A DNA stretch of 64,000 bases, from the NCBI GenBank assembly GCA_022749895.1, contig JAKIWS010000002.1, positions 24,387 through 88,386 on the forward strand, written 5' to 3'. The stretch's first letter is position 1. Each line of letters starts with the position of its first letter. Below are positions 12,186 to 34,908 of this stretch, one piece after another. The notes beneath the pieces are model-generated. The model was given only the letters and a program-made list of their open reading frames with translations, was not told the origin of the DNA and did not search any database. This DNA comes from Thermoplasmata archaeon. Its GTDB lineage: Archaea; Thermoplasmatota; Thermoplasmata; Lutacidiplasmatales; UBA184. The position numbers and the translations under genes are program-made.

Positions 12186-13508
12186 ATGAGTCGGCGTCCT
12201 TCGAGGGAGCGATTCGAAATGCCAGCCGCGGGGGTCGGGGCGGCGCTCGATACCGCTCGTTTGAACTCGCCGACACCTCCGACTCCGAGCGCCCCGGACG
12301 GTGCGTCCCTCACCCTCTTCGTGCTCGGTTTCGACCTCGCGGGCGGCTCGCTCGACGAGCTCGAGCGCGTCGCTCGGGAGATGACGGAGGAACGTGTCAC
12401 ACGGATGTTCGGCACGATCGCCGGCGTGGCCGAACTCCTCGTGCTCCGAACATGTCAACGCATCGAACTCTACGGTATCGCGTCGAAGGAGCTCGCCGCT
12501 TCCCACGTGCGCAACCGACTCCCGACCCCCGAGCGGTGGAGGCTCCGCCAGGACGACGAGGCCGTTGCCCACCTGCTGCGCGTCGCGGCCGGCTTGGAAT
12601 CGGTCGCGGTCGGTGAAAAGGAAGTACGGGCGCAGATCGACCACGCCCGGGGCTCGGTCCATTCCCGGCATCCCCGACCCGTCCTCAAGGAGCTCTTCGC
12701 CGAGGCCCGAAGGACCGCGGACCGGTGCGCCCCGGACCCGTCGCCCGCCCGGTCGATCGCCGCCCTCGCGGCCTCGAAGGTCCTCGAGGAATGCGGCGAT
12801 CCGTTCCCGCGGGTTCTCGTCGTCGGGGCCGGCGTCGTAGGTCGTCAGGTCGCCGAGCTCCTCGCTCCGCGCGCCCGAGTTACGTTGGTGTACCGCCACC
12901 ACCCGCCGGACCCGACGTTCCTCCGCGCCTTCGGGATCCGGGCCGTTCCGGCCCGCCAGATGCCCGAGGAGCTGGCCCTGTGCGACGCGACCGTCACCGC
13001 CGCCAAATCCGCGGGGCGCCTCCTGGACCCGACCGATTTCGAGCGGCCGACGGCGGCGGGGCGACCGAGGCTCGTGATCGACCTGGGGGTACCTCGCAAC
13101 GTCGACCCGAGCGCCGGTCGGGTGCCCGGGGTGCGCCTCGTCGACCTCGCAGGCCTGGGCTCCTCGTCCCGATCGCGGGAAGGGATCGACCCGGTGGCCG
13201 AGCGGGTCGACGGCGAGGTCGATCGAGTGTACCGGCTCTTTCTCCGCGAGACCATCGAACCGTGGGTCACGGCGCTGTTCCATCGCGCCGAAGCGATACG
13301 GCAACGCGAACTCACTGGAGCCCGGCCGCATCTCGGCGACCTCAGCCCCGAGCAGCTCGGAGCCATCGACCTCCTGACCACCCGGATCACCCGCCAGCTG
13401 CTCCTCCCGGCCGCACGACGCCTGCGGGCCAGCGGAGGCGGGTCGGAGGAGGCTCGATTGCGGCACGCCGCGCTCGAGCTGTTTCCCCCCGACGCGCCCC
13501 CGCCGTGA
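12186..13508 (+). CDS. hemA: Glutamyl-tRNA reductase
   Basis: ORF 12186..13508. The active-site region is LRTCQRIELY (family TCNRxE). HLLRVAAGLESVAVGEKEV and a Rossmann segment VLVVGAGVVGRQV are also present. Confidence 0.9.
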   Translation: MSRRPSRERFEMPAAGVGAALDTARLNSPTPPTPSAPDGASLTLFVLGFDLAGGSLDELERVAREMTEERVTRMFGTIAGVAELLVLRTCQRIELYGIASKELAASHVRNRLPTPERWRLRQDDEAVAHLLRVAAGLESVAVGEKEVRAQIDHARGSVHSRHPRPVLKELFAEARRTADRCAPDPSPARSIAALAASKVLEECGDPFPRVLVVGAGVVGRQVAELLAPRARVTLVYRHHPPDPTFLRAFGIRAVPARQMPEELALCDATVTAAKSAGRLLDPTDFERPTAAGRPRLVIDLGVPRNVDPSAGRVPGVRLVDLAGLGSSSRSREGIDPVAERVDGEVDRVYRLFLRETIEPWVTALFHRAEAIRQRELTGARPHLGDLSPEQLGAIDLLTTRITRQLLLPAARRLRASGGGSEEARLRHAALELFPPDAPPP

Positions 13509-14419
13509 GCGCCCCGATCCGGGTCGGGACGCGAAAGAGCGCGCTCGCCCTCGCCCAATGCGACTCCGTCGTCCGCACGCTTCGCACCCTGGCGCCGACC
13601 CGGGAGGTCGCGATCCGGCCGATGACGACCGCGGGCGATCGGGACCGTCGCCGAACCGCGTCCCCGGATTTCACCGACGCGATCGAGGAGGCCCTGCTCC
13701 GCCAGGAGATCGACCTCGCCGTCCACAGCGCGAAGGACCTGCCCGCGCGGTTACGCTCCGGCCTGACCCTCGCGGCGTTCCCCCGACGGGCGGACCCGCG
13801 CGACTGCTTCGTCCTCCGGGAGGCGCGGTCGTTTTCCGCCCTCCCTTCCGGCGCTCGGCTCGGTTCGAGCAGCCTTCGGCGGCAGGCCCAGCTGCTCGCC
13901 TGGCGACCGGACATCGAGGTCGTTCCGGTCCGGGGCAACGTCGACTCGCGTCTCGCGCACCTCGCTCGCGGAGACCTCGCCGGGATCGTCCTCGCCGTGG
14001 CAGGCCTCGCCCGCCTCGGCCGCGCCGACGTCATCACCGAGGTCGCCGACCCGCGCGCCCTCGTACCGGCCCCGGGCCAGGGCGCCCTCGCGATCGAGGT
14101 ACGAACGAAGGACCGGTCGCTGCTCCGCCTTGTTCGGGCCCTCGATCACGGAGCGACCCGAGCGGCGGTAACCGCGGAGCGGTCGTTCTCCGCATCCCTC
14201 GGCGGCGAGTGCAATCTTCCTCTGGGAAGCCTCGCCAGGGCCCGAGGGGGGCGGCTTCGCCTCGTGGGGGACGTACTCTCCCCCGACGGCCGCCGTCGGA
14301 TCCGAGGCAGCACCACCGGACCAACGTCGTCGGCGCACCGGCTCGGCGTCGAGCTGGGTCGTCGGCTGCGGGCGAACGGAGCCGGGCAGCTGCTCTCGGA
14401 GATCCGGAGCACCGCGTGA
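13505..14419 (+). CDS. hemC: Hydroxymethylbilane synthase (porphobilinogen deaminase)
   Basis: GTG 13505 overlaps the hemA stop (GTGA). Family strings are IRVGTRKSALALAQ, DLAVHSAKDLP, RGNVDSRL and the cofactor-Cys region GGECNLPLG. Confidence 0.9.
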   Translation: MSAPIRVGTRKSALALAQCDSVVRTLRTLAPTREVAIRPMTTAGDRDRRRTASPDFTDAIEEALLRQEIDLAVHSAKDLPARLRSGLTLAAFPRRADPRDCFVLREARSFSALPSGARLGSSSLRRQAQLLAWRPDIEVVPVRGNVDSRLAHLARGDLAGIVLAVAGLARLGRADVITEVADPRALVPAPGQGALAIEVRTKDRSLLRLVRALDHGATRAAVTAERSFSASLGGECNLPLGSLARARGGRLRLVGDVLSPDGRRRIRGSTTGPTSSAHRLGVELGRRLRANGAGQLLSEIRSTA

Positions 14420-15453
14420 GGTCACCGCCACCGGTGGTGCTGGTCGCCGCAGCGACGGAGACCCTGGGGGACCTCCAGCTCGGACTCGAGCGGGTCGGTA
14501 TCCGGGTGCATCGAATCCTCACCTTGAGGATGGAGCGCGTCGACCCGCGCTCGCTGCGCCGCGAGTTCGGTCGGATCGGTGCGCCGGAGCACGCCGTCAT
14601 CAGCAGCCAAGCGGCCATCGCCGCCTTTGTTCGCCCGGTCCTTGGCTCTCCGGCTCGCGGCTCCCGTCGATTCGGCCTCTACTCTGCAGGGCCTGCGACG
14701 ACCCGGTCGTTGCGGGAACTCGGCTGGAGGAGCGTGCGCCAAAGCCGCCCGGCCGGCCTCGAGGGAATCGCCCGCGCGCTCGTTCGGGACCGGGTGACCT
14801 CGGTCGTTCACCCGACTTCGGATCTCGGATTCGGACGGCTACCCCGGCTGCTGCGGAGGAGGGGGATCATCGTGCACGAGCTCGTCGCCTACCGCGCTCG
14901 CCCGGTCGGCCGACTGTCGCGCAGGTCGATGGAGGCGGTCGCGACGTGTGCCGTCGTCGTCGCCACAAGCCCGTCCGCGCTCCGCGCGCTGGTGGCGTTG
15001 CTTCCTCGACGCGAGCTCGCTCCCCTCGCCCGCCGCGCGATCGTCTTCGCCTGGGGGAGGAGTACCAGGACGGCCGCCACGGAGCTCGGATTCCGAACGC
15101 GGCAGATCCCGGTCGCCGCCTCGGAGCAAGGCTTTACGGGGGCCTCGTTCACGGCGCTCGCTGATGCCGCGGCCCCATCCCCCCGCGCGCCCCGGCGGCG
15201 GTTTTCCGGCGAAGATGCGCATGCGCCGGCTCCGCCGGACGAGCGGCCTACGGGAGCTCCTCGCCGAGCACGACCTCCCCGTCCGACGGCTCGTCTACCC
15301 GATGTTCGTGCGGCCCGGCAGCGGGGCACCGGAAACAATCCGCTCGCTCCCGGGGATCCGGCGCTACGCCGTGGACGACGCCGTGCGTCACGCCGGCGAC
15401 GCGCACGGTCAGGGGATTCCGGCCGTGTTGTTGTTCGGCCTCGCTCACCGTAA
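14416..15453 (+). CDS. hemD: Uroporphyrinogen-III synthase (with about 95-aa Arg/Pro-rich 3' extension overlapping hemB)
   Basis: GTG 14416 overlaps the hemC stop (GTGA). A HemD-like two-lobe sequence runs to about 15170 (…VVVATSPSALRALV…IVFAWGRSTRTAATELGF). The frame then stays open to 15453 as low-complexity sequence. Confidence 0.7.
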   Translation: MRSPPPVVLVAAATETLGDLQLGLERVGIRVHRILTLRMERVDPRSLRREFGRIGAPEHAVISSQAAIAAFVRPVLGSPARGSRRFGLYSAGPATTRSLRELGWRSVRQSRPAGLEGIARALVRDRVTSVVHPTSDLGFGRLPRLLRRRGIIVHELVAYRARPVGRLSRRSMEAVATCAVVVATSPSALRALVALLPRRELAPLARRAIVFAWGRSTRTAATELGFRTRQIPVAASEQGFTGASFTALADAAAPSPRAPRRRFSGEDAHAPAPPDERPTGAPRRARPPRPTARLPDVRAARQRGTGNNPLAPGDPALRRGRRRASRRRRARSGDSGRVVVRPRSP

Positions 15454-16186
15454 GGATCCGCGCGGCCGTGAGGCGCGCGACCCGTCGGGGGCGGTCCCGC
15501 GCGCGATCCGGGGGATCAAGCGGCTCTGGCCGGATCTCGTCGTCGCGACGGACGTCTGCCTCTGCGCCTACACCTCCCACGGTCACTGCGGGGTCCTCAA
15601 AGACGGGCGCGTCGACAACGACGCGACGCTCCCCCTACTGGCCGAGATGGCCGCCGTGCACGCGGCGGCCGGGGCGGATTTCGTCGCGCCGAGCGCCATG
15701 ATGGACCACCAGGTTGCGGCGTTGCGCCACGCCCTGGATGACCAGGGTTTCTCCGGGACCGGCGTCCTCGCGTACGGCGCCAAGTTCGCGTCGGCGTTCT
15801 ACGGACCGTTCCGGGACGCGGCCGATTCCGCCCCCGCCTTCGGGGACCGGCGGGAGTACCAGCTCGACCCGCGCAACGGCCGCGAAGCCGACCGCGAGAT
15901 CGACCTGGATGTCGAAGAGGGGGCGGACATCGTGATGGTCAAGCCCGCGCTCCCCGCGTTGGATATCCTCGCGCGCGCGCGGCAGCGTCACGCGATCCCC
16001 CTCGCCGCGTTCCAGGTCAGCGGGGAGTACGCGATGCTGAAGGCGGCGGGTCGGGCCGGCGCCCTCGACGAAGCGGCCGCCGTGATGGAGAGCCTCACCG
16101 TCATCCGCCGGGCCGGCGCCGACCTCATCGTGACGTACTTCGCTCCCGACGTGGCGCGGTGGGCGCGGCGGTCGGAGGAGCGGTGA
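15215..16186 (+). CDS. hemB: Porphobilinogen synthase (delta-aminolevulinate dehydratase), Zn-type
   Basis: ATG 15215 (MRMRRLRRTSGLRELL) lies inside ORF 14948..16186. The Zn site is DVCLCAYTSHGHCG and the active-site Lys context is IVMVKPALPALD. Confidence 0.9.
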   Translation: MRMRRLRRTSGLRELLAEHDLPVRRLVYPMFVRPGSGAPETIRSLPGIRRYAVDDAVRHAGDAHGQGIPAVLLFGLAHRKDPRGREARDPSGAVPRAIRGIKRLWPDLVVATDVCLCAYTSHGHCGVLKDGRVDNDATLPLLAEMAAVHAAAGADFVAPSAMMDHQVAALRHALDDQGFSGTGVLAYGAKFASAFYGPFRDAADSAPAFGDRREYQLDPRNGREADREIDLDVEEGADIVMVKPALPALDILARARQRHAIPLAAFQVSGEYAMLKAAGRAGALDEAAAVMESLTVIRRAGADLIVTYFAPDVARWARRSEER

Positions 16187-16905
16187 CCGCGGACGCCGGG
16201 GTTTCGGCGGGCGAGCCTCGCGACTTCGTGAAGTATACGTTCCTGCACCTCGATCCCGCCTGGCGCCTCCGTTCCCGCGAGTCGCGCCGGGGCGGCCGGT
16301 GGGAGCTCGCCGCGCTCCTCGCGCACCCACCGCCGGGGATGCACCTTCAGACGTACTCGCTCGTGGGCACGAAGGGCGGCGCCGACGGGCTCCTCTGGAT
16401 CGTCGCCGAGAGTCTCGAATCGATCCAAGAGCTCCACGCCCGCCTCTACGGCACGTCGATGGGGCGATACCTGGCCGTGGCGTTCTCGTACCTGGGGCTG
16501 GGCCGGCGCTCGGAGTACCTGGGCGATCACGCTCACGGCGGGCAGGAGGGTGCCGAAGGCCGACGACGGCCCGTTGGCCGACCGTACCTGTTCGTCTACC
16601 CCTTCGTGAAGAAACGCGAATGGTACGGTCTCCCGTTCGAGGAACGCCGGCGGATCATGGGCGAGCATTTCCGGATCGGGCACAAGTTTCCCCGGGTCGT
16701 GATCCACACGGGCTACTCGTTCGGGCTCGACGACGCCGAGTTCATCCTCGGGTTCGAGGCGGATTCCCCGGCGGAGTTCCTCGACCTGGTCGAAGCGCTC
16801 CGCGGCTCGGAGGCGAGCCGGTACACGGCGCTCGAGACGCCGATCTTCACGTGCCGTCGGGTCCCGCCGCTCACGATGCTCGAGCTCGCCGACGGGGTCG
16901 TCTGA
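16183..16905 (+). CDS. hemQ: Chlorite-dismutase-family protein, probable coproheme decarboxylase (HemQ/ChdC)
   Basis: ORF 16159..16905. GTG 16183 overlaps the hemB stop (GTGA). Cld-family strings are FVKYTFLHLDP, YLFVYPFVKKREWYGLPFEERRRIMGEH and VVIHTGYSFGLDDAEFILGFE. Confidence 0.75.
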   Translation: MTADAGVSAGEPRDFVKYTFLHLDPAWRLRSRESRRGGRWELAALLAHPPPGMHLQTYSLVGTKGGADGLLWIVAESLESIQELHARLYGTSMGRYLAVAFSYLGLGRRSEYLGDHAHGGQEGAEGRRRPVGRPYLFVYPFVKKREWYGLPFEERRRIMGEHFRIGHKFPRVVIHTGYSFGLDDAEFILGFEADSPAEFLDLVEALRGSEASRYTALETPIFTCRRVPPLTMLELADGVV

Positions 16906-18212
16906 CGCCGTCCCGCCGGCGACCGGCGTCGACCGCGGCGTTCCGCCGAGCCCGCTCCGTGCTGCCGGGAGGCGTCGACAGTCCGGTGCGGTCGTTCGTC
17001 CATGTCGGCGGCGTTCCGGTGTTCTTCGCGCGGGGCGACGGCGCCCGGCTCGTCGACGTCGACGGCCACCGGTACCTCGACCTCGTCAATTCCTGGGGAG
17101 CGATCATCCTCGGCCACGCGGCGCCGTCGGTGGTTCGGGCGATCGAGCGCACCGCGCGCGAGGGGCTGAGCTTCGGAGCGCCGTCGCCGCGCGAGCATGA
17201 ACTGGCCGAGCAGATCCGCCACGCGGCTCCCGAGCTCGAGCGGCTCCGGTTCGTGAACTCCGGCACGGAAGCGACGATGTCGGCGGTGCGCGTCGCCCGC
17301 GGGTTCACCGGACGCGCGAAGATCGTCAAGTTCGCCGGCGGCTATCATGGTCATAGCGACGGCCTGCTCGCCCGGGCCGGTTCGGGCGTCGCCGCGCAGT
17401 CCCTTCCCGATTCCGCCGGCGTCCCAGCGCCCACCGTCGCGACCACGCTCGTAGCTCCGTACAACGATCTCGACGCCACCCGGGAGGTGTTCGAGGAACA
17501 CGGGGAGGAGATCGCGGCGGTCATCGTGGAACCGATCGCCGCGAACATGGGCCTGGTTCCGCCGGTCGATGGCTTCCTGCGCGGCGTCGACCGGCTCGTC
17601 CACACGGCCGGCGGGCTGTTGATCGCCGACGAGGTGATCACCGGCTTCCGTCTCCGGCGCGGGCTCATCCACCCGACGTTGGGGGCCCGCGCGGACCTCG
17701 TAGCCCTCGGAAAGATCATCGGCGGCGGCCTCCCGGTCGCGGCGTACGGCGGCCGACGCGACGTCATGGAGACCGTCGCGCCGATCGGACCGGTGTACCA
17801 GGCCGGTACCCTCGCGGGCAACCCCGTAGCGATGGCCGCGGGGACGGCGACGCTCGCTCGTCTGACCCCAGCGCTGTACGATCGCCTCGATCGCGTTGCG
17901 GCCGAGGCGGCCCGGTCGATCCAGCGGTGCGCGGACGGGCAATCGGTCGACGGGTTCACGCTCGTTCGCCGCGGGTCGATGTTGGGCCTCTTTTTCGCCG
18001 ACCACCCTCCGCGCAACGAGGTCGAGGCGGCGCGGACCGACCGGGCCCGATTCGCCCGATTCTTTCACGCGGCGCTCGACGCCGGGGTCTACCTTCCGCC
18101 GTCCCCCCTCGAAACCGCGTTCCTGTCGGCGGCGTGGGGGCGCGGCGAGGTCGCCGACCTCGAACGGAGGCTGGCGGGGGCCTTCCGGGCGGCCCGTCGC
18201 TCGGGTCGGTGA
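16902..18212 (+). CDS. hemL: Glutamate-1-semialdehyde 2,1-aminomutase
   Basis: Frame of ORF 16299..18212. Family strings are LPGGVDSPVRSF and NSGTEATMSAVRVARG, and the PLP-Lys context is ALGKIIGGGLP. The start is uncertain. CTG 16902 (CTGA overlap with the hemQ stop) gives a family-typical N-terminal length. Alternatives are GTG 16851 or GTG 16959. Confidence 0.85.
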   Translation: MTPSRRRPASTAAFRRARSVLPGGVDSPVRSFVHVGGVPVFFARGDGARLVDVDGHRYLDLVNSWGAIILGHAAPSVVRAIERTAREGLSFGAPSPREHELAEQIRHAAPELERLRFVNSGTEATMSAVRVARGFTGRAKIVKFAGGYHGHSDGLLARAGSGVAAQSLPDSAGVPAPTVATTLVAPYNDLDATREVFEEHGEEIAAVIVEPIAANMGLVPPVDGFLRGVDRLVHTAGGLLIADEVITGFRLRRGLIHPTLGARADLVALGKIIGGGLPVAAYGGRRDVMETVAPIGPVYQAGTLAGNPVAMAAGTATLARLTPALYDRLDRVAAEAARSIQRCADGQSVDGFTLVRRGSMLGLFFADHPPRNEVEAARTDRARFARFFHAALDAGVYLPPSPLETAFLSAAWGRGEVADLERRLAGAFRAARRSGR

Positions 18213-18214
18213 CG

Positions 18215-19252
18215 ATGCGGCGTCGATTCTTGGAAGCACTCCGCGGCGAGGCTCCGGAGACGACCCCGATCTGGCTGATGCGGCAGGCGGGGCGGTACCT
18301 CCCGGGGTACCGGAAGTTACGCGCGGAGCACGCGATCCTGGAGATCGCCCGGGACCCCGCGCTCGCCGCCGAGGTCACGCTGGAACCGGTGCGGAGGTTC
18401 GATGTTGACGCGGGTGTGATCTTCGCCGACATCACGCTCCCGTTCGCGGGCCTCGGGCTCGATTTCCGCATCGACCCCGGCGTCGGCCCCGTCATCCCCA
18501 CCCCGGTCAACGACCGCGCCGCCGTCGACCACCTCCGTTCGTTCGACGCCGAAACCGAGCTCGGCTTCGTCGGACAGGCGATCGAACGGTTCCGGCTCGC
18601 CGCCCCCGACCGGCCCGTGATCGGGTTCGCGGGCGCTCCGTTCACGCTCGCGTCGTATCTGGCCGAGGGAGGTGCCTCGCGCGACTTCGCGGCGACGAAG
18701 AGGTTCCTCGGGACGGATCCGGCGGGGTTCCACGAGCTCCTCCGTCGGCTGACCCAGGTGACGATCGACTACCTTCGGATGCAGGCGCGACACGGCGCCC
18801 ACGCCCTGCAGGTGTTCGACACCTGGGCCGGCGTGCTCGGCCGACGGGAGTTCGACCTCGAGGTCGCTCCGTACCTCCGGGACCTGTTCGCCGAGACCGC
18901 CGCGTGGAAGGTCCCGACCATCTACTTCTCCACCGGGTCGACCCATCTGCTCCCGATTCTGAAGGGCCTCGGCGCCACCGCCCTCGGCGTCGACTGGCGG
19001 CTCCCGCTGGGGGCGGTACGGCGCGAAGTCGGGGGCGGCCTACCCCTGCAGGGGAACCTGGACCCCGGAGCGATGCTCGGCAGCGCGGACGCGATGCGAC
19101 GCCGAGCCGCCGAGGTGTTGCGCGAGATCCCCGACCGGCGGGGGCACGTCTTCAATTTAGGGCACGGCGTGCTCCCCGGCACCGACCCGGAACGCGTCCG
19201 CGAGCTCGTCGAGTTCGTGCATGCGACCGGCCGGGCCGGAGCGAACCGATGA
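18215..19252 (+). CDS. hemE: Uroporphyrinogen decarboxylase
   Basis: ATG 18215 lies 3 nt after the hemL stop; GTG 18209 is also possible. The motif is PIWLMRQAGRYLPGYR. Confidence 0.9.
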   Translation: MRRRFLEALRGEAPETTPIWLMRQAGRYLPGYRKLRAEHAILEIARDPALAAEVTLEPVRRFDVDAGVIFADITLPFAGLGLDFRIDPGVGPVIPTPVNDRAAVDHLRSFDAETELGFVGQAIERFRLAAPDRPVIGFAGAPFTLASYLAEGGASRDFAATKRFLGTDPAGFHELLRRLTQVTIDYLRMQARHGAHALQVFDTWAGVLGRREFDLEVAPYLRDLFAETAAWKVPTIYFSTGSTHLLPILKGLGATALGVDWRLPLGAVRREVGGGLPLQGNLDPGAMLGSADAMRRRAAEVLREIPDRRGHVFNLGHGVLPGTDPERVRELVEFVHATGRAGANR

Positions 19253-20175
19253 CCGAGGGCGGGCGAACCGGTCCGCCCGCGGTCCTGCTGATGGGCTACG
19301 GATCCCCCGGAGGTCCCGAGGACATCCCGGGGTACCTCGCCGATGTGCTGGCCCGACCCCCCACCGACGACCTCGTAGAGGAGTACCGTCGACGGTACGC
19401 GCTGATCGGCGGCTCGCCGCAGAACCGGGTCCTCGGCTCTCTCCGAACGAAACTGGAGGAACGGTTGCGGGCCGACGGCGACGGGACGCGGGTCTATCTC
19501 GGCACCAAGCACTGGTCGCCGCACATCGCGGACGTCCTGCCGGCGATCGCGGCCGACGGGTTCGACACGGTCACGGCGGTACCCCTCTCCCCGTACGCTT
19601 CGACGTGGATCATGGAACCGTACCTGCGGGCGGTCGAGCGGGGACGGGCCGCCGCCCGGCGACCGCTCCGCGTCGATGTCCGGTCCGGCTGGCACACCAA
19701 TTCGCATCTCATCGCCTACTGGCGCGATGCGATCCGGAGCGCGAACGAGGCGAACGGAGGCGCGGTGCTCCTCTCGGCGCACAGCCTCCCCACGCGCATG
19801 GCCGAGCAGGGCGACCCGTACCCGAAACTCCTCGACACGACCGCCACCGCGATCGCGACCGCCGCAGAGCTTCCGCGGTGGTCGTTCACGTTCCAGAGCG
19901 CCGGCAACACGACCGAACCGTGGCTCGGACCGGACATCACCGAGGTGATGACCGACTGGCAACGGCGGGGGGTCACGGACCAGCTCGTCGCTTCGTTCGG
20001 TTTCGTCTTCGATCACCTGGAGACCCTCTACGACCTGGACGTCGTGGTCCGAGCGTTCGCGGAGGAGCGCGGCATTCCGTACCGCCGGGCCCCGATGCCC
20101 AACGACGACGACCGGGTCGTCGCGGCGCTCGCCGACGTCGTCCACCGGCCGAATGGGCCCGCCCTCGACGCCTAG
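19249..20175 (+). CDS. hemH: Ferrochelatase (probably coproporphyrin ferrochelatase type)
   Basis: ATG 19249 overlaps the hemE stop (ATGA). Family strings are VLLMGYGSP, LLSAHSLP and FVFDHLETLYDLD. Confidence 0.85.
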   Translation: MTEGGRTGPPAVLLMGYGSPGGPEDIPGYLADVLARPPTDDLVEEYRRRYALIGGSPQNRVLGSLRTKLEERLRADGDGTRVYLGTKHWSPHIADVLPAIAADGFDTVTAVPLSPYASTWIMEPYLRAVERGRAAARRPLRVDVRSGWHTNSHLIAYWRDAIRSANEANGGAVLLSAHSLPTRMAEQGDPYPKLLDTTATAIATAAELPRWSFTFQSAGNTTEPWLGPDITEVMTDWQRRGVTDQLVASFGFVFDHLETLYDLDVVVRAFAEERGIPYRRAPMPNDDDRVVAALADVVHRPNGPALDA

Positions 20176-26379: not shown

Positions 26380-29300
26380 TTACGTCCGGTCGTCCGGCTC
26401 CGCGGCCCCCTCGTTGTTCCGAAGCCCCCGGACGATCTCCGCACCTTCCCACCGGAGCCGCCGTCGTCGCCAGTACGCCCCGATCACGACGGCGGCGAAC
26501 ACCGCCCCGGCGACGGCCCCCGGGAGAACGCCGCCCGCGAGACCGAGCAGCGAGCCGGTTCCGCCCGGTGGGGTCGGGTTCCCGGGCGGCCCCGCCTCGA
26601 CGACGACCGAGGCCATCGCCGAGGTCGGCCGCCCGAGCGCGTCCGTCACGTTGAGATGGACCGTGAAGGTCCCCACGACGGAGGGGGAGCAGGTGAGCGC
26701 CGGGGCGTTCACGGAACTGCAACCGGCCGGAAGCCCCGCGTACAGGTAGCGGAGCGGCGCGACGCCACCCGCGGTCGCCACGACGAACGTCACGGGATGA
26801 CCGACGACGACGGTCGAAGGGTCGGCGAGGAAGGCGGAGATGCTCGGGCCGGCGCCGATCCGCGACGGGACGACGTTGAGCGCGGTGTGGACGCCGGCGC
26901 GGTGCCCCGCGAGGTCGAACGTCACGACGTAGACGTTGAACGCCCCGGTCGCCGTGGGCGTGCACGGCAGCGCCGAGGCGTTCGCGGAGAGGCAGCCGGC
27001 CGGGAGGCCCTGGTAGGCGTATCCGAGGGGACCGACGCCCCCCGTCGCAACGACGAGGAGCACCGTCGATTCCCCGATCGCCAGGACGGCGGGCGCCGCG
27101 GTGAACGAGGAGATGAGCGCCCCACCCCCCCCGCCGACCGGGTAGATGGTGACGTTCGCGAAGGCGACGGCGGTTCGCCCGGCGGTATCCGTGACCACGA
27201 CCTCGACGGTGGGGCTCCCGGCGGTCGTCGCCGTGCACGGGAGGGACGAACGGTTGGCGGTCGCGCAGCCGGCGGGCAGGCCTTGGTAGGCGTACGCAAG
27301 AGGGCCGCTCCCGCCCCGCGCGGTCGCCCCGAAGTTGGTCGTGTTTCCGAGGACGAGGGCGTTCGGCGCGGCCGCGAAGGCGAAGATCTCCGGGCCGCCG
27401 AGCGCTCCGCGGGGTACGACCACCAATCCGGCACTCGCCGTCGCCGCGGAACCCGGAGCGTCGGTGACCGTCACCGTGATCGTGTAGTTGCCGGTCACGT
27501 TCGGATAGCACGGCAACACCACGACGTTCTGCGACGGGCATCCGGGCGGCAAGCCCGAGTAACTGTACGCGATCGGGGGAGTTCCTCCCATCACCTGAGC
27601 CGCGAGCAGCGTCCGATTCCCGACCAGGTCGGGGTTGGCGCTCACGGTGAAGGAGCCGATCGTGGGCACCGGGTTGACCTGCACCGTCGCGAGCGCCTGC
27701 GCGTAGTTTCCGTGCACGTCGGTCACCCGCACCGTGACCGGGTAGGTCCCGGCCGATGTCGGGGTGCAGGCGAGCGTCGAGAGGTTCGCGGATAGGCATC
27801 CCGGCGGAAGACCCGCGTACACAAAGGTGAGCGACCCCACGCCGCCGCCGGCGGAGGCGGCCAGTTGAAGCGACTGGCCGACGTCCGTAGCGGCCGGGAG
27901 CGCCCGGAAGCTCGCGATGTACGGCCGGTTGCCGCCACCGGCCGACCAGGCCCACGCGTCGCCGCAGACTTCCCGGCACTGCGGCGGCTCGCCGTTGTAG
28001 AGGCTGTAGCCTTGACCGAACGCTCCGCCGAAGACGAGCGCCGAGGCGTCGGCCGTGTCGACGGCGGACGCGGCCTCGGAGCGGTTGAACGGCCCGGTAC
28101 TCGGGAACTGCTCGGTCCAGCTGCCGTTCGCGTACGTCCAGGTATCCGCGAGCCATTGGCCGACGGAGGGGGAACGACCTCCCCACAGGACCACGTACGG
28201 GCCCGGGGCGTAGTACGTGAGCACGCCCGCGGCGCGGGCCGGCGGCGCGCCCACGACCCGGCTGGTCAGATTGGTCCAGTTCGCCGACTGGAACTTCCAG
28301 GTCTCGCGGCTGGGACTCGGCCAGCCCCCGGACGAGGAGGGAACGGTGCCGAAGAGGAGGACGTAGCCGTCGGTCGCGTCGTACGTGATCTGGCCGGGCA
28401 TCGCACTGTGGGGAGCGGTCCGGAGGTGCGAGGTGAGATTCGTCCACGTCCCCGCGTGGAACGTCCACGTGTCGTTGTACCCGCCGGGCGACGAGCTCCC
28501 TTCCGCGTAGTACGGGAATCCTCCGAACAGCAGGATGTCTCCCGCGGCGCCATCGTACAGGAGGTCCGTCCCGCTCCGGTTCGACGGCGCTACGAGCGGC
28601 GTGAGCCGCGACCAGTTGCCGCTGACGAACTCCCAGGTATCCCCGAGAGCCCGACCCGCGGCACCGTACCCCCCGAACAGGACGACGTACCCATCGGCGG
28701 CATCGTAGGCCATCCCGGCGCCGTCGCGCGCGGCCGGTCCGGGGCGTCCGGTAAGCTCGGTCCACACCCCGCCCCGGAACGTCCACGTGTCGTTGAGGGG
28801 CGTCCACACGACGGCGGGGCTGCCAGCGAGACGATACCCCCCGAATAGGACGACCTCGCCATCGGCCGCATCGTACGTCATGCGCGCGTCGGCCCGGGCC
28901 GATGGAACCGCGGTCGTCCGATTGGTCCACGCCCCCGCCGTGAACGACCAGGTGGGGGCCTGTCCGCCCGGAGGCTGCGCGATGCTCCCGAGAAGGAGCG
29001 CGTAGTGGTCGGCCAGGTCGTAGCCGAAGGCGGGACCGAAGCTCGACGGAGGGGAGATCGTCGGTGAGATTGTCTTCCAGACGCCGGCATGGAAGCTCCA
29101 GGTACGGAGCTGGGCCCCCGTCGAGTTGGTCACGAGGAGCACCACGCCGTCGGCGGGATCGTCGACGAGCCCCGCCCGGGGGTGGTTGGAGACGGGTGGC
29201 CCTGGCACAGCGAGCGGGGTCCAGTGACCGGAGCCAAACGTCCAGGTCGAGTTGTCGGGCTGCCCGGACGTTAGGATGCCCCCAAACAAGACCACGTTGG

Positions 29301-30225
29301 CGTCAGCGGAGTCGAAGGTGATGGCCCCACCATACCGCGCCGGTGGCGCTGTGGTGAGGTTGGCGGAGAGGTTGTTCCAGACGCCCCCCGAGAACGACCA
29401 AGTGTCGTTCAGGTAGGTGAATCGGGAACCGGCCGCGTAGTAACCTCCGAAGAGGAGGAGGTAGCCATCGGCGTTGTCGTACGCCATCATCGGAAGGTAG
29501 CGGGGGGACGGTCGAGGCACGGGGCTGACCTGGTTCCACTGACCCGAGGCGAAGGTCCAGGTCTGATTCGCGGACGGGCAGGCGGGCTGGGTCCCGGCGA
29601 CGTTCGCCGCCCCAAAGAAGACGACCACGCGGTCGAGCGCGTCGTACGCGAGCGCCGACCCGGGGCAATCCGTCGGCTGGAGGTTGGAGAGGATCGGGCT
29701 CCATCGCCCGGCGGCGTAGCTCCACGAGGAGCTGACGTCGTTCGAGGTCGCAGAATACGGGTTGGGTCCGTCCAGGAGCACGACCATGTTGTCCGCGAGG
29801 TCGAACGTCAGGAGCGAATTCTGGAATCCGGCCGGTTCCGTACTCACGGGTCTCCACCCGGCCGGCCCCCCCACGGCGGGCAGGCGGGCTGCGGCATGGG
29901 GTGTGCACCGACTCGACGTTCCGCCGCTCGAGCAACTCCAGGATTGCCCCCCGGCGGGACCCTCGCCGTGCGCGAGAGCCGCCGTGGCCCGGAGGATCGC
30001 GCCCGAGGCCGTCGCGGTGGCGAGATGCGCGGGAGAGACCGCGCGAAGATGCGGGGCGGTGACGTCGGAAGCGCGAGTCCCCTCCGGCCAGGCGAGGGTC
30101 AGGACGGCGACCAGGCCCAGGACCAACAGCATCGAGCCGAGGGTCCGCCGCCGACCGGCGGGCAAGCGTACCCGATGGGTCGGGTGGGGGTCGCGACTAC
30201 CGTTCGCCGTGGTCCCCCGGCTCAC
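26380..30225 (-). CDS. Giant surface protein: signal/TM, about 12 Kelch blades (two propellers), five Ig-like repeats, C-terminal TM anchor
   Basis: ORF 26380..30279. I count 12 blade cores of the type MAYDAADGYVVLFGG...W. Five repeats with YxYxGLPxGC follow. The C-terminal span LPGAVAGAVFAAVVIGAYW is followed by RRRR. The start is set at in-frame GTG 30225, 27 nt downstream of a TATA-like box. GTG 30279 is the alternative. Confidence 0.8.
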   Translation of the reverse strand: MSRGTTANGSRDPHPTHRVRLPAGRRRTLGSMLLVLGLVAVLTLAWPEGTRASDVTAPHLRAVSPAHLATATASGAILRATAALAHGEGPAGGQSWSCSSGGTSSRCTPHAAARLPAVGGPAGWRPVSTEPAGFQNSLLTFDLADNMVVLLDGPNPYSATSNDVSSSWSYAAGRWSPILSNLQPTDCPGSALAYDALDRVVVFFGAANVAGTQPACPSANQTWTFASGQWNQVSPVPRPSPRYLPMMAYDNADGYLLLFGGYYAAGSRFTYLNDTWSFSGGVWNNLSANLTTAPPARYGGAITFDSADANVVLFGGILTSGQPDNSTWTFGSGHWTPLAVPGPPVSNHPRAGLVDDPADGVVLLVTNSTGAQLRTWSFHAGVWKTISPTISPPSSFGPAFGYDLADHYALLLGSIAQPPGGQAPTWSFTAGAWTNRTTAVPSARADARMTYDAADGEVVLFGGYRLAGSPAVVWTPLNDTWTFRGGVWTELTGRPGPAARDGAGMAYDAADGYVVLFGGYGAAGRALGDTWEFVSGNWSRLTPLVAPSNRSGTDLLYDGAAGDILLFGGFPYYAEGSSSPGGYNDTWTFHAGTWTNLTSHLRTAPHSAMPGQITYDATDGYVLLFGTVPSSSGGWPSPSRETWKFQSANWTNLTSRVVGAPPARAAGVLTYYAPGPYVVLWGGRSPSVGQWLADTWTYANGSWTEQFPSTGPFNRSEAASAVDTADASALVFGGAFGQGYSLYNGEPPQCREVCGDAWAWSAGGGNRPYIASFRALPAATDVGQSLQLAASAGGGVGSLTFVYAGLPPGCLSANLSTLACTPTSAGTYPVTVRVTDVHGNYAQALATVQVNPVPTIGSFTVSANPDLVGNRTLLAAQVMGGTPPIAYSYSGLPPGCPSQNVVVLPCYPNVTGNYTITVTVTDAPGSAATASAGLVVVPRGALGGPEIFAFAAAPNALVLGNTTNFGATARGGSGPLAYAYQGLPAGCATANRSSLPCTATTAGSPTVEVVVTDTAGRTAVAFANVTIYPVGGGGGALISSFTAAPAVLAIGESTVLLVVATGGVGPLGYAYQGLPAGCLSANASALPCTPTATGAFNVYVVTFDLAGHRAGVHTALNVVPSRIGAGPSISAFLADPSTVVVGHPVTFVVATAGGVAPLRYLYAGLPAGCSSVNAPALTCSPSVVGTFTVHLNVTDALGRPTSAMASVVVEAGPPGNPTPPGGTGSLLGLAGGVLPGAVAGAVFAAVVIGAYWRRRRLRWEGAEIVRGLRNNEGAAEPDDRT
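26599..27924 (-). repeat. Five tandem coding repeats (83-92 aa each) forming Ig-like domains inside the giant Kelch protein
   Basis: The repeat boundaries were counted from the protein sequence. Each unit carries (F/Y)xYxGLP(P/A)GC...L(x)C(T/Y/S)P...G.(Y/F).V.V.V.D..G. Confidence 0.75.
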
Positions 30226-31222: not shown

Positions 31223-33202
31223 CTACCCCGTGCCCGGGAGCGGTTGTCCGCAGTTCGAACAGAACCGGACCCGCATCGTCATCAGGCTCCCGCACCGCGG
31301 GCATTTCTGGACCTGGGCGCCGATCCGAGCGCTCCCCGTGCCCGCGCGGGTCGGCGACGGGGGAGGGCGTGCCGGACCCGGGGCCAGCGGATCGTTGCTC
31401 GGCAGGGAAGGCGACGCGGGGGCCGCGGGAGTCATGCCGAAGATAGCGGCCACCATCGGCGAGAGGATCCACCGGGGTGCGTTCGGATGGAGCAAGATCG
31501 CGCGGGCCTGATCGACGGTGACCAGGATCGCCCCCACCATGGGGGTCTTTCCGGGGTACGTGTAGGTGAACACGAACCGCCCGCGGCGGGCGGGGAATCG
31601 CGCCGGCTCAAGATACGCCCACGGAATTCGTAGATCGCTCTTCGAGCGTCGGACGATGACCCCCGACGCGCAGGTGCCGACCGATCGCGTCACCGACCGT
31701 CCGGACGAATAGATCACGGAGAACGGCAGGAGCAGGAGTATCACAAACGCGGGCAACAACAGGAGGGCGGCCCCAGCGGCCCCGGAGCCACTCGCGGCGA
31801 GCGGGATGATCAGGATCGCGATGAGGAACAGGGTGAAGATCGTGAGGAAGACGCCGGATACGACCCCGTCGCGATAGAGCGCCCACCGGCCCACCGTCGG
31901 GACCCAGCGTACCTCGCTGTCGGGCGGCGGCGGGAACAGCGCCTGGAGGGCGCGCTCCCGGCGACGCCGACTCCGATGGCCGGCGAGGATGGCGACCGCG
32001 AACGTGACCGGGAAGACGAGCGCGAAGATCAGGAACGCGCCCCCGAACCCGTTCGACTTCGGGTTCAGCAGCGACCAGTTCCCGTGAACGTACGTCCAGG
32101 TCCCGTCGGTCACGCCCGACGGCTCGCCGCCGGTCGCCACCAGAAGGTACCCGTCGGCGGCGTCGAACGCCATCGCCCCGGCGTAGAGGCCGTCCGGAAA
32201 CTCGTTCGCGGTGAGCCGGCTCCAATGCCCGCTGGCCAACGACCAGACGTCGCCGAAGTACGTCCCGTAGGCGTAGCCCCCGGCGAGGACCAGGTTCCCG
32301 TCCAGGGGGTCCTCCGCGAACATCGCCCCGTGGCGGGGCGACGGCGCCGTGCCCGCGCTCGCCGTCAGATTCGTCCAGACCCCGTGGCCGTAGCTCCAGG
32401 TGTCGCCGATGTTCGACCCGTTGAGCCCCCCGAACAACACGACCGGAACTGTCGATCCGCCGGCGAGAGAAGCATCGAGACGACCGATCGGGCGGGCCCC
32501 CGTGATGTTCGACGCGAGGTTCGTCCAATGCCCGTGCCCGAACGACCACGCGTCCGACAACGTCTGGGGAGTCGCGCCCCCGAGAGACCCTCCGAAGAGG
32601 AGGGCGTAGCCGTCCGGTCCGTCCCACGTCATCGCGGCACGACCGCGGGCGGAGGGAGCGACCCCGGCCGTCGCCGAAAGGTCGGTCCAGTGACCCCCTT
32701 GGAAGACCCACGTGTCGGCGAGCGCGGGGTAGCAGCTCAGCGTCACGCAGCCGCCGAAGAGGAGCAATTGCTGGTCGGCCGCATCATAGACCATGGACCC
32801 GGCCCAGCGGGCGGGGGGGTACTTCGCGAGCTGGCCGGAAAGGTCCGTCCACGTGCGGTTGTGGTACGTCCACGTCGCCGACGTCGCCGAACCGCTGGAG
32901 TCGAGGCCGCCGAACATGACCACGTACCCGTCGACCGCATCGTACGCCATCGAGGCGAACTCGATGTAGGGCGGATTCGTCGCGAGATTCGCCGGGCGCG
33001 ATCCCTCCACTCCGGCGAGGCCGCAGGCACGGTCGGCGGGAGTCGCGCAGAGGCCGGCCCGAGATGGTTCCCCCCCCAGCCCTGGGAGGGAGTGCGCGCT
33101 CGCGATTGTCGGCGGGGGACTCGGGGGAGCAAAGCGGGTCCCGCCGGCACCGGGCGTGAAGGTTCCCACGGCCAGCACGACGAGGGCGGCGAGGACGATC
33201 AC
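31223..33202 (-). CDS. Kelch-propeller ectodomain protein with TM segments, cytoplasmic PH-like region and C-terminal zinc ribbon
   Basis: ORF 31223..33202 (GTG start). A signal-like MIVLAALVVLAVGTF precedes about 6 Kelch blades (MAYDAVDGYVVMFGG, MVYDAADQQLLLFGG, MTWDGPDGYALLFGG ...). After a TM helix followed by HRSRRRRE comes a second two-TM hairpin, and the protein ends CPRCGSLMTMRVRFCSNCGQPL. Confidence 0.75.
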   Translation of the reverse strand: MIVLAALVVLAVGTFTPGAGGTRFAPPSPPPTIASAHSLPGLGGEPSRAGLCATPADRACGLAGVEGSRPANLATNPPYIEFASMAYDAVDGYVVMFGGLDSSGSATSATWTYHNRTWTDLSGQLAKYPPARWAGSMVYDAADQQLLLFGGCVTLSCYPALADTWVFQGGHWTDLSATAGVAPSARGRAAMTWDGPDGYALLFGGSLGGATPQTLSDAWSFGHGHWTNLASNITGARPIGRLDASLAGGSTVPVVLFGGLNGSNIGDTWSYGHGVWTNLTASAGTAPSPRHGAMFAEDPLDGNLVLAGGYAYGTYFGDVWSLASGHWSRLTANEFPDGLYAGAMAFDAADGYLLVATGGEPSGVTDGTWTYVHGNWSLLNPKSNGFGGAFLIFALVFPVTFAVAILAGHRSRRRRERALQALFPPPPDSEVRWVPTVGRWALYRDGVVSGVFLTIFTLFLIAILIIPLAASGSGAAGAALLLLPAFVILLLLPFSVIYSSGRSVTRSVGTCASGVIVRRSKSDLRIPWAYLEPARFPARRGRFVFTYTYPGKTPMVGAILVTVDQARAILLHPNAPRWILSPMVAAIFGMTPAAPASPSLPSNDPLAPGPARPPPSPTRAGTGSARIGAQVQKCPRCGSLMTMRVRFCSNCGQPLPGTG

Positions 33203-34741: not shown

Positions 34742-34908
34742 TGGTGGGAGCAGGGGGATTTGAACCCCCATATGCGGGTCTCTCCGCGCGCTCCAGTCAA
34801 TCGTCATCGGACCGCGCCGGGCGGTCCTCCGCAGACCCAACTTCGCAGGATCGCCTTGCGGCAAACCTGACTGGAGCCCGCTGGTCTACCAGATTAGCCT
34901 ATGCTCCC
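34742..34908 (-). tRNA. tRNA-Trp (anticodon CCA) with a 91-nt intron at the canonical 37/38 position (34780..34870) and encoded 3' CCA
   Basis: Hand-folded. The acceptor is GGGAGCA/UGCUCCC, the anticodon stem GCGGG/CCCGC, the loop CUCCAG|intron|A, and the T arm GGGGG-UUCAAAU-CCCCC, followed by A-CCA. A bulge-helix-bulge forms from CUCC:GGAG (4 bp) flanked by the 3-nt bulges AG|U and AG|A. The D stem has one C:A mismatch. Confidence 0.85.

Follow-up and report, generated by a model that had tools for sequence, protein, structure and literature searches.

How does an archaeon that encodes neither the Ahb route to haem nor a recognized coproporphyrinogen oxidase make haem b? The question is raised by an operon in a 64,000-nucleotide stretch of contig JAKIWS010000002.1 (positions 24,387 to 88,386 of the forward strand; GenBank assembly GCA_022749895.1) from a Thermoplasmata archaeon of the order Lutacidiplasmatales. 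(We refer to this whole stretch as the window, and positions are counted from its first letter.) An initial annotation of the window described eight contiguous haem genes on one strand, took the presence of hemE, hemH, and hemQ among them as the signature of the coproporphyrin-dependent (CPD) route, and saw no oxidase gene nearby. We propose that this is very probably a genuine archaeal operon for the synthesis of haem b by the CPD route, in which coproporphyrinogen would be oxidized by non-enzymatic or unrecognized means. The pathway assignment is solid, and it is not new in kind.

In the proposed pathway, HemA, HemL, HemB, HemC, and HemD would convert glutamyl-tRNA to uroporphyrinogen III, and HemE would convert this to coproporphyrinogen III. 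Coproporphyrinogen III would then be oxidized by O2 without an enzyme, or by an enzyme of an unrecognized family. A CpfC-type HemH would insert iron into coproporphyrin III, and a ChdC-type HemQ would decarboxylate the resulting coproheme to haem b. The haem would feed an aerobic chain (cytochrome b, a haem-copper oxidase, and the haem O and haem A synthases).

An operon for the coproporphyrin-dependent route

We compared all eight operon proteins with Pfam and NCBIfam profiles, and every gene identity given by the initial annotation was borne out:

12186-20175, + strand: eight-gene haem operon hemA-hemC-hemD-hemB-hemQ(chdC)-hemL-hemE-hemH(cpfC) (Pfam and NCBIfam)
12186..13508, + strand: hemA, glutamyl-tRNA reductase (GlutR_N, Shikimate_DH, and GlutR_dimer domains)
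13505..14419, + strand: hemC, hydroxymethylbilane synthase (TIGR00212, 300 bits, cutoff 164)
14416..15453, + strand: hemD, uroporphyrinogen-III synthase (HEM4, residues 23-236)
15164..16186, + strand: hemB, porphobilinogen synthase (ALAD, 444 bits; NF006762, 447 bits)
16183..16905, + strand: hemQ/chdC, putative Cld-family coproheme decarboxylase (PF06778, Chlor_dismutase, 174 bits)
16902..18212, + strand: hemL, glutamate-1-semialdehyde 2,1-aminomutase (NF000818, 550 bits, residues 9-430)
18215..19252, + strand: hemE, uroporphyrinogen decarboxylase (TIGR01464, 366 bits, cutoff 303)
19249..20175, + strand: hemH/cpfC, predicted coproporphyrin-type ferrochelatase (TIGR00109, 159 bits, cutoff 125)

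The route depends on what HemQ and HemH do. The top NCBIfam match of HemQ is HemQ_actino (hydrogen peroxide-dependent haem synthase) at 128 bits, which is under the 235-bit cutoff. Its top matches in the PDB are coproheme decarboxylases (9mhr, 4e-29; C. diphtheriae ChdC, 4e-22), and chlorite dismutases match less well (N. defluvii Cld, 6e-16), which argues against a true chlorite dismutase. The catalytic residues are also intact: Y139, H162, and H116 of HemQ align with the radical tyrosine Y135, the proximal histidine H158, and the distal base H118 of the C. diphtheriae enzyme, and they are conserved in 81/81, 81/81, and 77/81 members of the family, respectively. From these alignments, HemQ is predicted to be a ChdC-type coproheme decarboxylase.

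HemH is a soluble protein of 308 amino acids without a C-terminal Fe-S extension. Its top PDB matches are from B. anthracis (2c8j, 4.5e-50) and the CpfC proteins of L. monocytogenes and B. subtilis (about 1e-45), while human ferrochelatase matches at 1e-20. The tyrosine that is typical of CpfC (Y17) is kept in 59/61 family members, and the catalytic residues H178 and E258 are kept in all 61. HemH is therefore predicted to be a CpfC-type (Firmicutes-type) coproporphyrin ferrochelatase and not a protoporphyrin ferrochelatase. Together with HemE, the two enzymes give the CPD signature that had been recognized at the outset.

No known oxidase in the genome assembly

The genome that we searched (2.02 Mb, about 70% GC) is an assembly of 106 contigs that is 83% complete. 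The initial annotation had found no oxidase gene in the operon or its surroundings, which holds: the flanking genes encode an IscA-like protein, an ABC transporter, a flippase-like protein, and a glyoxalase, none of which is suitable as an oxidase. It had also proposed looking for cgoX/hemY, cgoN-like, and ahb genes in the rest of the genome, and we found none in this assembly. No protein matched CgoX/HemY above the TIGR00562 cutoff, and the only matches, at 20 bits or less, were to the N-terminal FAD fold. These weak matches are two CrtI-like proteins, an LhgO-like oxidase, and a geranylgeranyl reductase-like protein, and none of their genes is linked to haem genes. We considered the CrtI-like flavoproteins as oxidases and set them aside, as their genes (contig C1, 81409-82977 and 87605-89155) lie in a catabolic-looking cluster. 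(The two are paralogous CrtI/phytoene-desaturase-like genes, 5 kb apart, among genes for Rieske-type oxygenases, a peptide ABC transporter, and aminotransferases.)

The other known oxidases and the alternative routes are missing from the genome as well. The genome has no match to CgoN (DUF1444), nor does any of the 121 genomes that we sampled from the order. HemJ was not found, and neither was a HemG-like flavodoxin (Flavodoxin_5), which has weak matches in 16/121 genomes of the order. For HemN (TIGR00538), this genome gave no match at E ≤ 1e-10, and no genome of the order gave one above the cutoff. Searches with E. coli HemF and YfeX found no homologs in the genome by phmmer or tblastn, and a hidden Markov model of the CopD-like family that is described below, run over all six-frame open reading frames, found no member. 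As for the archaeal route, AhbA/B (PF17805) is absent from this genome and present in 4/121 genomes of the order; the control searches in Haloferax, Sulfolobus, and Methanosarcina were positive. The model for the AhbC/D-like radical SAM/SPASM proteins (TIGR04053), which cross-matches both AhbD and AhbC strongly, has no match in this genome at E ≤ 1e-20. The Ahb genes whose presence would have spoken against the initial annotation are thus absent from this genome.

Other membrane proteins were tried as oxidases and rejected. A 165-amino acid protein with four transmembrane helices and an N-terminal WLHVVSAIGWLGGG motif (contig C53, 6699-7196, + strand) is distantly related to the CopD/DUF2269/HemJ clan. 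It has sub-threshold Pfam matches only, its gene is not linked to hem genes, and its family, present in about 15/121 genomes, also turns up alongside CgoX or the CopD-like protein, so that its distribution is not complementary to theirs. We likewise found no orthologue in this genome for another conserved membrane family (about 205 amino acids; loci L187-L192).

The genome does need haem. Contig C96 encodes subunit I of a haem-copper oxidase (COX1, 474 bits), CtaA, CtaB, cytochrome b, and a Rieske protein. As COX1, CtaA, CtaB, and cytochrome b are encoded, haem b, haem o, and haem a must all be needed. This complex III/IV locus also encodes small transmembrane proteins of 81 and 125 amino acids, and nothing in it resembles a porphyrinogen oxidase.

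The contig is archaeal and the operon is typical of the order

A bacterial-type operon on an archaeal contig could reflect a bacterial or chimeric contig. The contig is archaeal, from a Lutacidiplasmatales-like member of the Thermoplasmata, and is neither bacterial nor chimeric, because it is syntenic with long Thermoplasmata contigs, the relatives of HemQ are archaeal, and it carries an intron-bearing tRNA-Trp gene. Genes on both sides of the operon are syntenic (51-95% identity) with a subset of the related loci, on Thermoplasmata contigs that reach 1 Mb and that include Candidatus Lutacidiplasma silvani. The best 80 genomic relatives of HemQ are all archaeal: 75 are from Thermoplasmata metagenome-assembled genomes (MAGs), again including Ca. 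Lutacidiplasma silvani, and the others are from Bathyarchaeia, an unclassified archaeon, and a Nitrososphaerales MAG. The GC content is uniform across the window, at about 0.70. Lutacidiplasmatales have been described as aerobic, with 69% GC and 2.1 Mb (PMC9287336), figures with which this genome (2.02 Mb, about 70% GC) agrees. The tRNA-Trp(CCA) gene (34742-34908, - strand) is 14.5 kb from the operon and is interrupted at the canonical 37/38 position by an intron of 91 nt; the 71 positions of the Rfam model are spread over 164 nt, and ARAGORN detects this gene in intron mode alone. An intron at position 37/38 of tRNA-Trp is a hallmark of archaea. The archaeal context given by the initial annotation is therefore upheld.

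About 75 independent Thermoplasmata loci share the order hemA-C-D-B-Q-L-E(-H), so the arrangement is not due to chance. Where enough downstream sequence is available, hemH directly follows hemE (50/60 loci), and hemA is present in 59/75 related loci. A closely similar operon is found in soil Bathyarchaeia, in an unclassified archaeon, and in a Nitrososphaerales locus; in Bathyarchaeia, an additional gene for an AhbD-like radical SAM protein lies upstream of it. The operon is a stable, order-typical trait of the Lutacidiplasmatales-like Thermoplasmata.

Across the 121 genomes, HemQ is found in 67 and CgoX in 12. The 67 genomes with HemQ comprise:

8/67: genomes with CgoX
12/67: genomes with a cluster-type CopD-like (CopD/HemJ-clan) protein
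5/67: genomes with only a stand-alone CopD-like gene
2/67: genomes with AhbA/B next to HemQ
40/67, this genome included: genomes with none of CgoX, a CopD-like gene of either kind, or AhbA/B

The oxidase gap is real and lineage-wide. It is not an artefact of assembly, because 20 of the 40 genomes without a candidate have a completeness of 90% or more. (Flavodoxin_5 matches weakly in two or three of the 40.)

The route is patchy even within a genus, as defined by GTDB, because many genomes lack HemQ: it was not found in 54/121 genomes, of which several are 94-96% complete (G019, G020, G022, and G023). Two families of the order hold Ahb genes. In two genomes of genus g5 of family f1, AhbA/B lie within 3 kb of HemQ (G018, contig C11, 5403-8907; G040, contig C25, 7979-11447, locus L102). 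These two genomes have a hybrid of the sirohaem-to-coproheme route with HemQ, like the one that was proposed for Haloferax. In family f3, AhbA/B are found beside two radical SAM genes.

Sister genomes have CgoX or a CopD-like protein in the same slot

Some relatives carry an accessory module that is absent from the genome of this window (no TIGR04053 protein, no CopD-like protein, and no CgoX). The TIGR04053 protein is an AhbD-like member of the radical SAM/SPASM proteins and could plausibly decarboxylate coproheme without O2; 24/121 genomes have a match above the cutoff. Two of these (G003 and G006) have the full Ahb cluster and were not counted as having the module, and two others (G011 and G036) are just under the cutoff and were counted, which gives 24 module clusters. 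Twelve of them have CgoX and twelve have a CopD-like membrane protein. In the CgoX loci that we examined (L091-L095, from G017, G009, G004, G026, and G072), the gene order is hemH2-CgoX-radical SAM or hemE-radical SAM-hemH-CgoX. In the 12 genomes with the radical SAM gene and without CgoX, the radical SAM gene is followed by the gene for the CopD-like protein and then by hemH2 (clusters L109-L113, from G001, G034, G052, G031, and G037, were examined). So, the CopD-like protein occupies the slot between the ferrochelatase and decarboxylase genes, where CgoX is found in every CgoX cluster that we examined.

The CopD-like protein has 161-168 amino acids and about four transmembrane helices. It is above the Pfam cutoff for CopD (PF05425, 50 bits), with weaker matches to HemJ/UPF0093, DUF2269, DUF4149, and the N-terminal domain of urate oxidase; its match to HemJ (PF03653), which overlaps the one to CopD, is at most 23-27 bits, and the cutoff is 34. 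In an alignment, it has an invariant histidine in the first transmembrane helix, within an H-x3-A-x3-V-G-G motif, and a second invariant histidine. For an O2-independent dehydrogenase that acts on coproporphyrinogen, the CopD-like protein is a good candidate, because it sits where CgoX lies in the CgoX clusters. The obvious alternative is that it handles copper or iron beside the ferrochelatase. Among the papers that we searched, none ties CopD-like proteins to the oxidation of coproporphyrinogen. Sister genomes with the module would thus fill the oxidation step with CgoX or probably with this CopD/HemJ-clan membrane protein. A second, stand-alone subfamily of CopD-like proteins (in G015, G051, G098, G047, G079, G060, G050, and G013) has no hem genes within about 6 kb, and we did not count it as haem-linked.

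A variant of the route is seen in genus g2, where four genomes that are 91-98% complete (G004, G009, G024, and G064; loci L092 and L093) have CgoX and the AhbD-like radical SAM protein and lack HemQ. One of them, G009, has the full hemE-radical SAM-hemH-CgoX cluster. In these genomes, coproheme is apparently decarboxylated by the AhbD-like radical SAM protein alone.

How is coproporphyrinogen oxidized?

For the genome of this window, we consider a non-enzymatic step and an unrecognized enzyme to be about equally likely. The initial annotation had offered an unrecognized oxidase and the acquisition of a bacterial-type branch as alternatives. These are not exclusive: the branch does look bacterial in the HemQ and HemH trees, as discussed below, and no known oxidase is encoded, which keeps the first option in play alongside a non-enzymatic step. 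If there is an enzyme, it would be a dedicated oxidase or dehydrogenase from a family that is not homologous to CgoX, CgoN, HemG, HemJ, or the CopD-like protein, and its gene would lie elsewhere in this genome, as it would in the other 39 without a candidate. This may be so, given that the gap extends across the lineage in high-quality genomes, that sister genomes invest in an enzyme for this oxidation, and that non-orthologous displacement has been seen three times at this step (CgoX, CgoN, and the CopD-like protein in the CgoX slot). However, we found no candidate for it in the genome: the CrtI-like pair is in a catabolic-looking cluster, the C53 membrane protein occurs in about 15/121 genomes without complementarity, and the operon flanks have nothing suitable. 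If instead O2 does the work, oxidation would be adventitious, sped by HemQ or other haem proteins, and the operon-only genomes would have no dedicated gene for it, a possibility that we hold just as tentatively. The peroxidase-like HemQ might assist an oxidation driven by O2, a reaction that would also yield the H2O2 used by HemQ. HemQ shares the CDE superfamily with the E. coli porphyrinogen peroxidase YfeX (porphyrinogen peroxidase is also its RefSeq name), although YfeX itself has no homolog in the genome. The operon-only genomes have an aerobic chain and lack the O2-sensitive AhbD-like radical SAM protein, and it is next to this protein that the haem-context oxidase genes are found (12/12 cluster-type CopD-like genes and every CgoX locus that we examined). 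HemQ stimulates coproporphyrinogen's non-enzymatic oxidation, and CgoX itself is slow, with a turnover of about 0.5-1.3 per min (PMC5095920). Also, the autoxidation of coproporphyrinogen III in air is measurable (PMC10965808). Yet the reported rates are low, and the turnover of free porphyrinogen and porphyrin would be wasteful and phototoxic. We know of no organism that has been shown to rely on non-enzymatic oxidation of coproporphyrinogen.

Several points weigh against our proposal as a whole. HemQ and HemA are under the NCBIfam equivalog cutoffs, so their exact functions are predicted from residues and context. A purely non-enzymatic step would be unusual in an essential pathway, and the dedicated oxidases of the sister genomes argue that an enzyme is normally required here. 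With the assembly 83% complete, a CgoX or CopD-like gene could also have been missed. It is improbable that the unassembled 17% of the MAG holds CgoX, or the CopD-like protein and its module, although the assembly is in 106 contigs, CgoX is present in 12/121 relatives, and one relative, the SPRUCE 215 MAG, has both the operon hemH and a CgoX fragment (loci L022 and L121). The chance is slight, with a rough Bayes estimate of 2-5%, because only 20/67 relatives with HemQ have CgoX or the CopD-like protein in a haem context. Also, the same absence is seen in 20 genomes that are at least 90% complete, and in the module genomes G017 (L014) and G034 (L003), the main operon lacks hemH, which is in the operon here. 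Even less probable is that the Cld-family gene does not encode a haem enzyme at all, so that it would be a true chlorite dismutase or another paralogue in a cluster that makes precursors of other tetrapyrroles. The HemQ_actino score of 128 bits against a cutoff of 235 and the match to N. defluvii Cld at 6e-16 would allow for this, but 4-nt overlaps embed hemQ between hemB and hemL, with hemE and hemH to follow, and hemE and hemH serve only the synthesis of haem or chlorophyll. Furthermore, the closest structural relatives of HemQ are ChdCs, and the catalytic tyrosine and both histidines are kept.

We suggest, tentatively, that most of the haem-making members of the order run the CPD route without CgoX or CgoN and hence with further, unrecognized means of oxidation. 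The CopD/HemJ-clan protein might then be a new, probably quinone-linked, O2-independent dehydrogenase, and the operon-only genomes might use another enzyme or none.

Origin of the operon

To place the operon, we built the phylogenies of HemQ, HemH, and HemE that the initial annotation had called for, and a bacterial origin is favoured. In the HemQ tree, the Thermoplasmata, Bathyarchaeia, and Nitrososphaerales-like sequences form one group with moderate support (SH-aLRT 91). This archaeal group is nested within a radiation whose labelled members are from Dehalococcoidia, Rubrobacteraceae, Poribacteria, and Planctomycetota, and the characterized actinobacterial ChdCs are more distant. HemQ is also only distantly related to the Cld-like protein TA0507 of Thermoplasma (structure 3DTZ; a partial match, 3e-12), which suggests that it was acquired separately. 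In the HemH tree, the operon proteins form a clade with 100% support, and their sister group comprises the Firmicutes CpfC proteins and the ferrochelatases of G009, G004, and G072. The hemH2 products from the CgoX clusters of G017 and G026 and from the CopD-like clusters form a separate clade of their own. HemE falls in a Thermoplasmata clade (100% SH-aLRT), which bacterial clades separate from the clade of Bathyarchaeia and Nitrososphaerota, in a tree with narrow bacterial sampling.

Among bacterial proteins, the one closest to the Thermoplasmata CgoX comes from Solibacteraceae (45% identity). Its gene, in a Solibacteraceae MAG (CAZPZE010000731.1, 6974-9570; locus L122), is directly followed by a TIGR04053-like radical SAM gene (41%), and the pair may have been transferred together. 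From these quick trees, and from the Ahb genes kept in family f3 and in genus g5 of family f1, we favour the view that the module is bacterial in origin and replaced Ahb, and it has likely spread among soil archaea.

Gene boundaries and surroundings

The junctions that the initial annotation quoted are all present. The stop codon of hemA overlaps the start of hemC through GTGA at 13505, and there are further overlaps at 14416 and 16183 (GTGA), 16902 (CTGA), and 19249 (ATGA), with GTGAcgATG at 18209. Some of the gene boundaries are less regular. The start of hemA is uncertain, with candidates at ATG 12186, ATG 12219, or GTG 12321; the GlutR family profile aligns from about residue 45 onwards in the longest reading, and the protein is divergent (117 bits against TIGR01035, which is under the cutoff). 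The HEM4 domain of hemD ends near 15140, the usual stop codon is gone, and the frame is open to 15453, so that it overruns hemB by about 290 nt. The readthrough tail of about 95 residues is rich in Arg, Pro, and Ala, as expected from an out-of-frame reading of hemB. In 15 relatives, the stop codon of hemD is about 12 codons past the domain, mostly with an overlap of 8-14 nt with the start of hemB. The absence of this stop could be a true loss or an indel in the assembly. The likely start of hemB is ATG 15164, which gives the N-terminus MPRPHPP...FPAKMRMRRLRR. For hemL, the probable start is CTG 16902, inside the CTGA that overlaps the stop codon of hemQ, because no ATG, GTG, or TTG is found ahead of the conserved N-terminus. 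The first canonical start, GTG 16959, would delete this N-terminus, and the high-scoring segment pairs with relatives begin at residue 8.

The neighbours of the operon, which are the IscA-like gene and the ABC transporter upstream and the flippase-like gene and the glyoxalase downstream, are unrelated to it. We sought a conserved promoter or operator by aligning the relatives upstream of hemA, and this region was not alignable. Elsewhere, the window encodes very large, secreted or surface-looking proteins with Kelch-repeat and PKD domains (26380-29847, - strand, 1155 amino acids; 31223-33010, - strand, 595 amino acids), and contig C53 encodes further proteins of this kind, of 920, 708, and 504 amino acids.

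Comparison with known systems

The operon resembles the CPD route of B. subtilis, L. monocytogenes, and C. diphtheriae in having HemE, a CpfC-type HemH, a ChdC-type HemQ, and the early hem genes. It is also alike in that HemQ has the catalytic tyrosine, the proximal histidine, and an actinobacterial-type distal histidine, and in that HemN and HemF are absent. Unlike the route of Firmicutes and Actinobacteria, it has no CgoX and no CgoN, its host is archaeal, and all eight genes are in one operon with hemQ between hemB and hemL. HemQ is nearest to the actinobacterial type and HemH is nearest to the Firmicutes type. The replacement of CgoX by an unrelated enzyme has a precedent in CgoN (YtpQ, DUF1444), the O2-independent coproporphyrinogen oxidase of Bacillaceae (PMC10965808), a family that is found in 0/121 genomes of the order. 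The CopD-like protein of the sister genomes is similar to HemJ/PgdH2 (PF03653), a membrane b-haem protoporphyrinogen dehydrogenase, in its length, its four or so transmembrane helices, and the histidine in the first of these. It differs in that it scores above the cutoff for CopD and not for HemJ, and its substrate would be coproporphyrinogen. The swap of CgoX and the CopD-like protein in one slot points to a concrete candidate, which can be cloned, for one of the missing enzymes, and the operon-only genomes are a natural test of enzyme-free oxidation.

Among archaea, Haloferax volcanii has a ChdC-type decarboxylase (PitA), which it uses aerobically. However, it is a hybrid with Ahb, as it lacks uroD, cgoX, and cpfC and makes coproheme by the sirohaem route (PMC5746218). 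Here, there are hemE and hemH and no Ahb, and a pairing of AhbA/B with HemQ like that of Haloferax is found in genus g5 of the order and not in this genome. A survey of archaea in 2024 found the complete CPD route only in some Halobacteria and in one genome of Hydrothermarchaeota (PMC11459464). The paper that described the Lutacidiplasmatales treats the haem A and haem O synthases and not the synthesis of haem b (PMC9287336), and a 2026 review stated that the described enzymes of the protoporphyrin-dependent (PPD), AHB, and CPD routes cover all known haem-synthesizing organisms (PMC13564367). The operon would document that a bacterial-type module took the place of the Ahb route, which a few genomes of the order retain, as these archaea adapted to oxic soils.

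The closest parallel is in the same phylum. Picrophilus and Thermoplasma were reported to have hemE and hemH without ahb, hemY, hemG, hemF, or hemN, and their route was called unclear (Storbeck et al., 2010; PMC3004389). Given this report, a bacterial-type route in an archaeon is less of a surprise than the initial annotation had implied: the route itself stands, and the operon adds to a known exception. What makes it of interest is that the oxidase gap runs through the lineage and that sister genomes hold a candidate replacement. As in Thermoplasma and Picrophilus, the late CPD genes are present, Ahb is absent, and there is a gap at the oxidase; unlike in those genera, all of the genes are in one operon, and in a different order. 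With the CPD route minus its oxidase seen across a large group of aerobic archaea from soil, the Thermoplasma puzzle of 2010 becomes a pattern at the level of a lineage.

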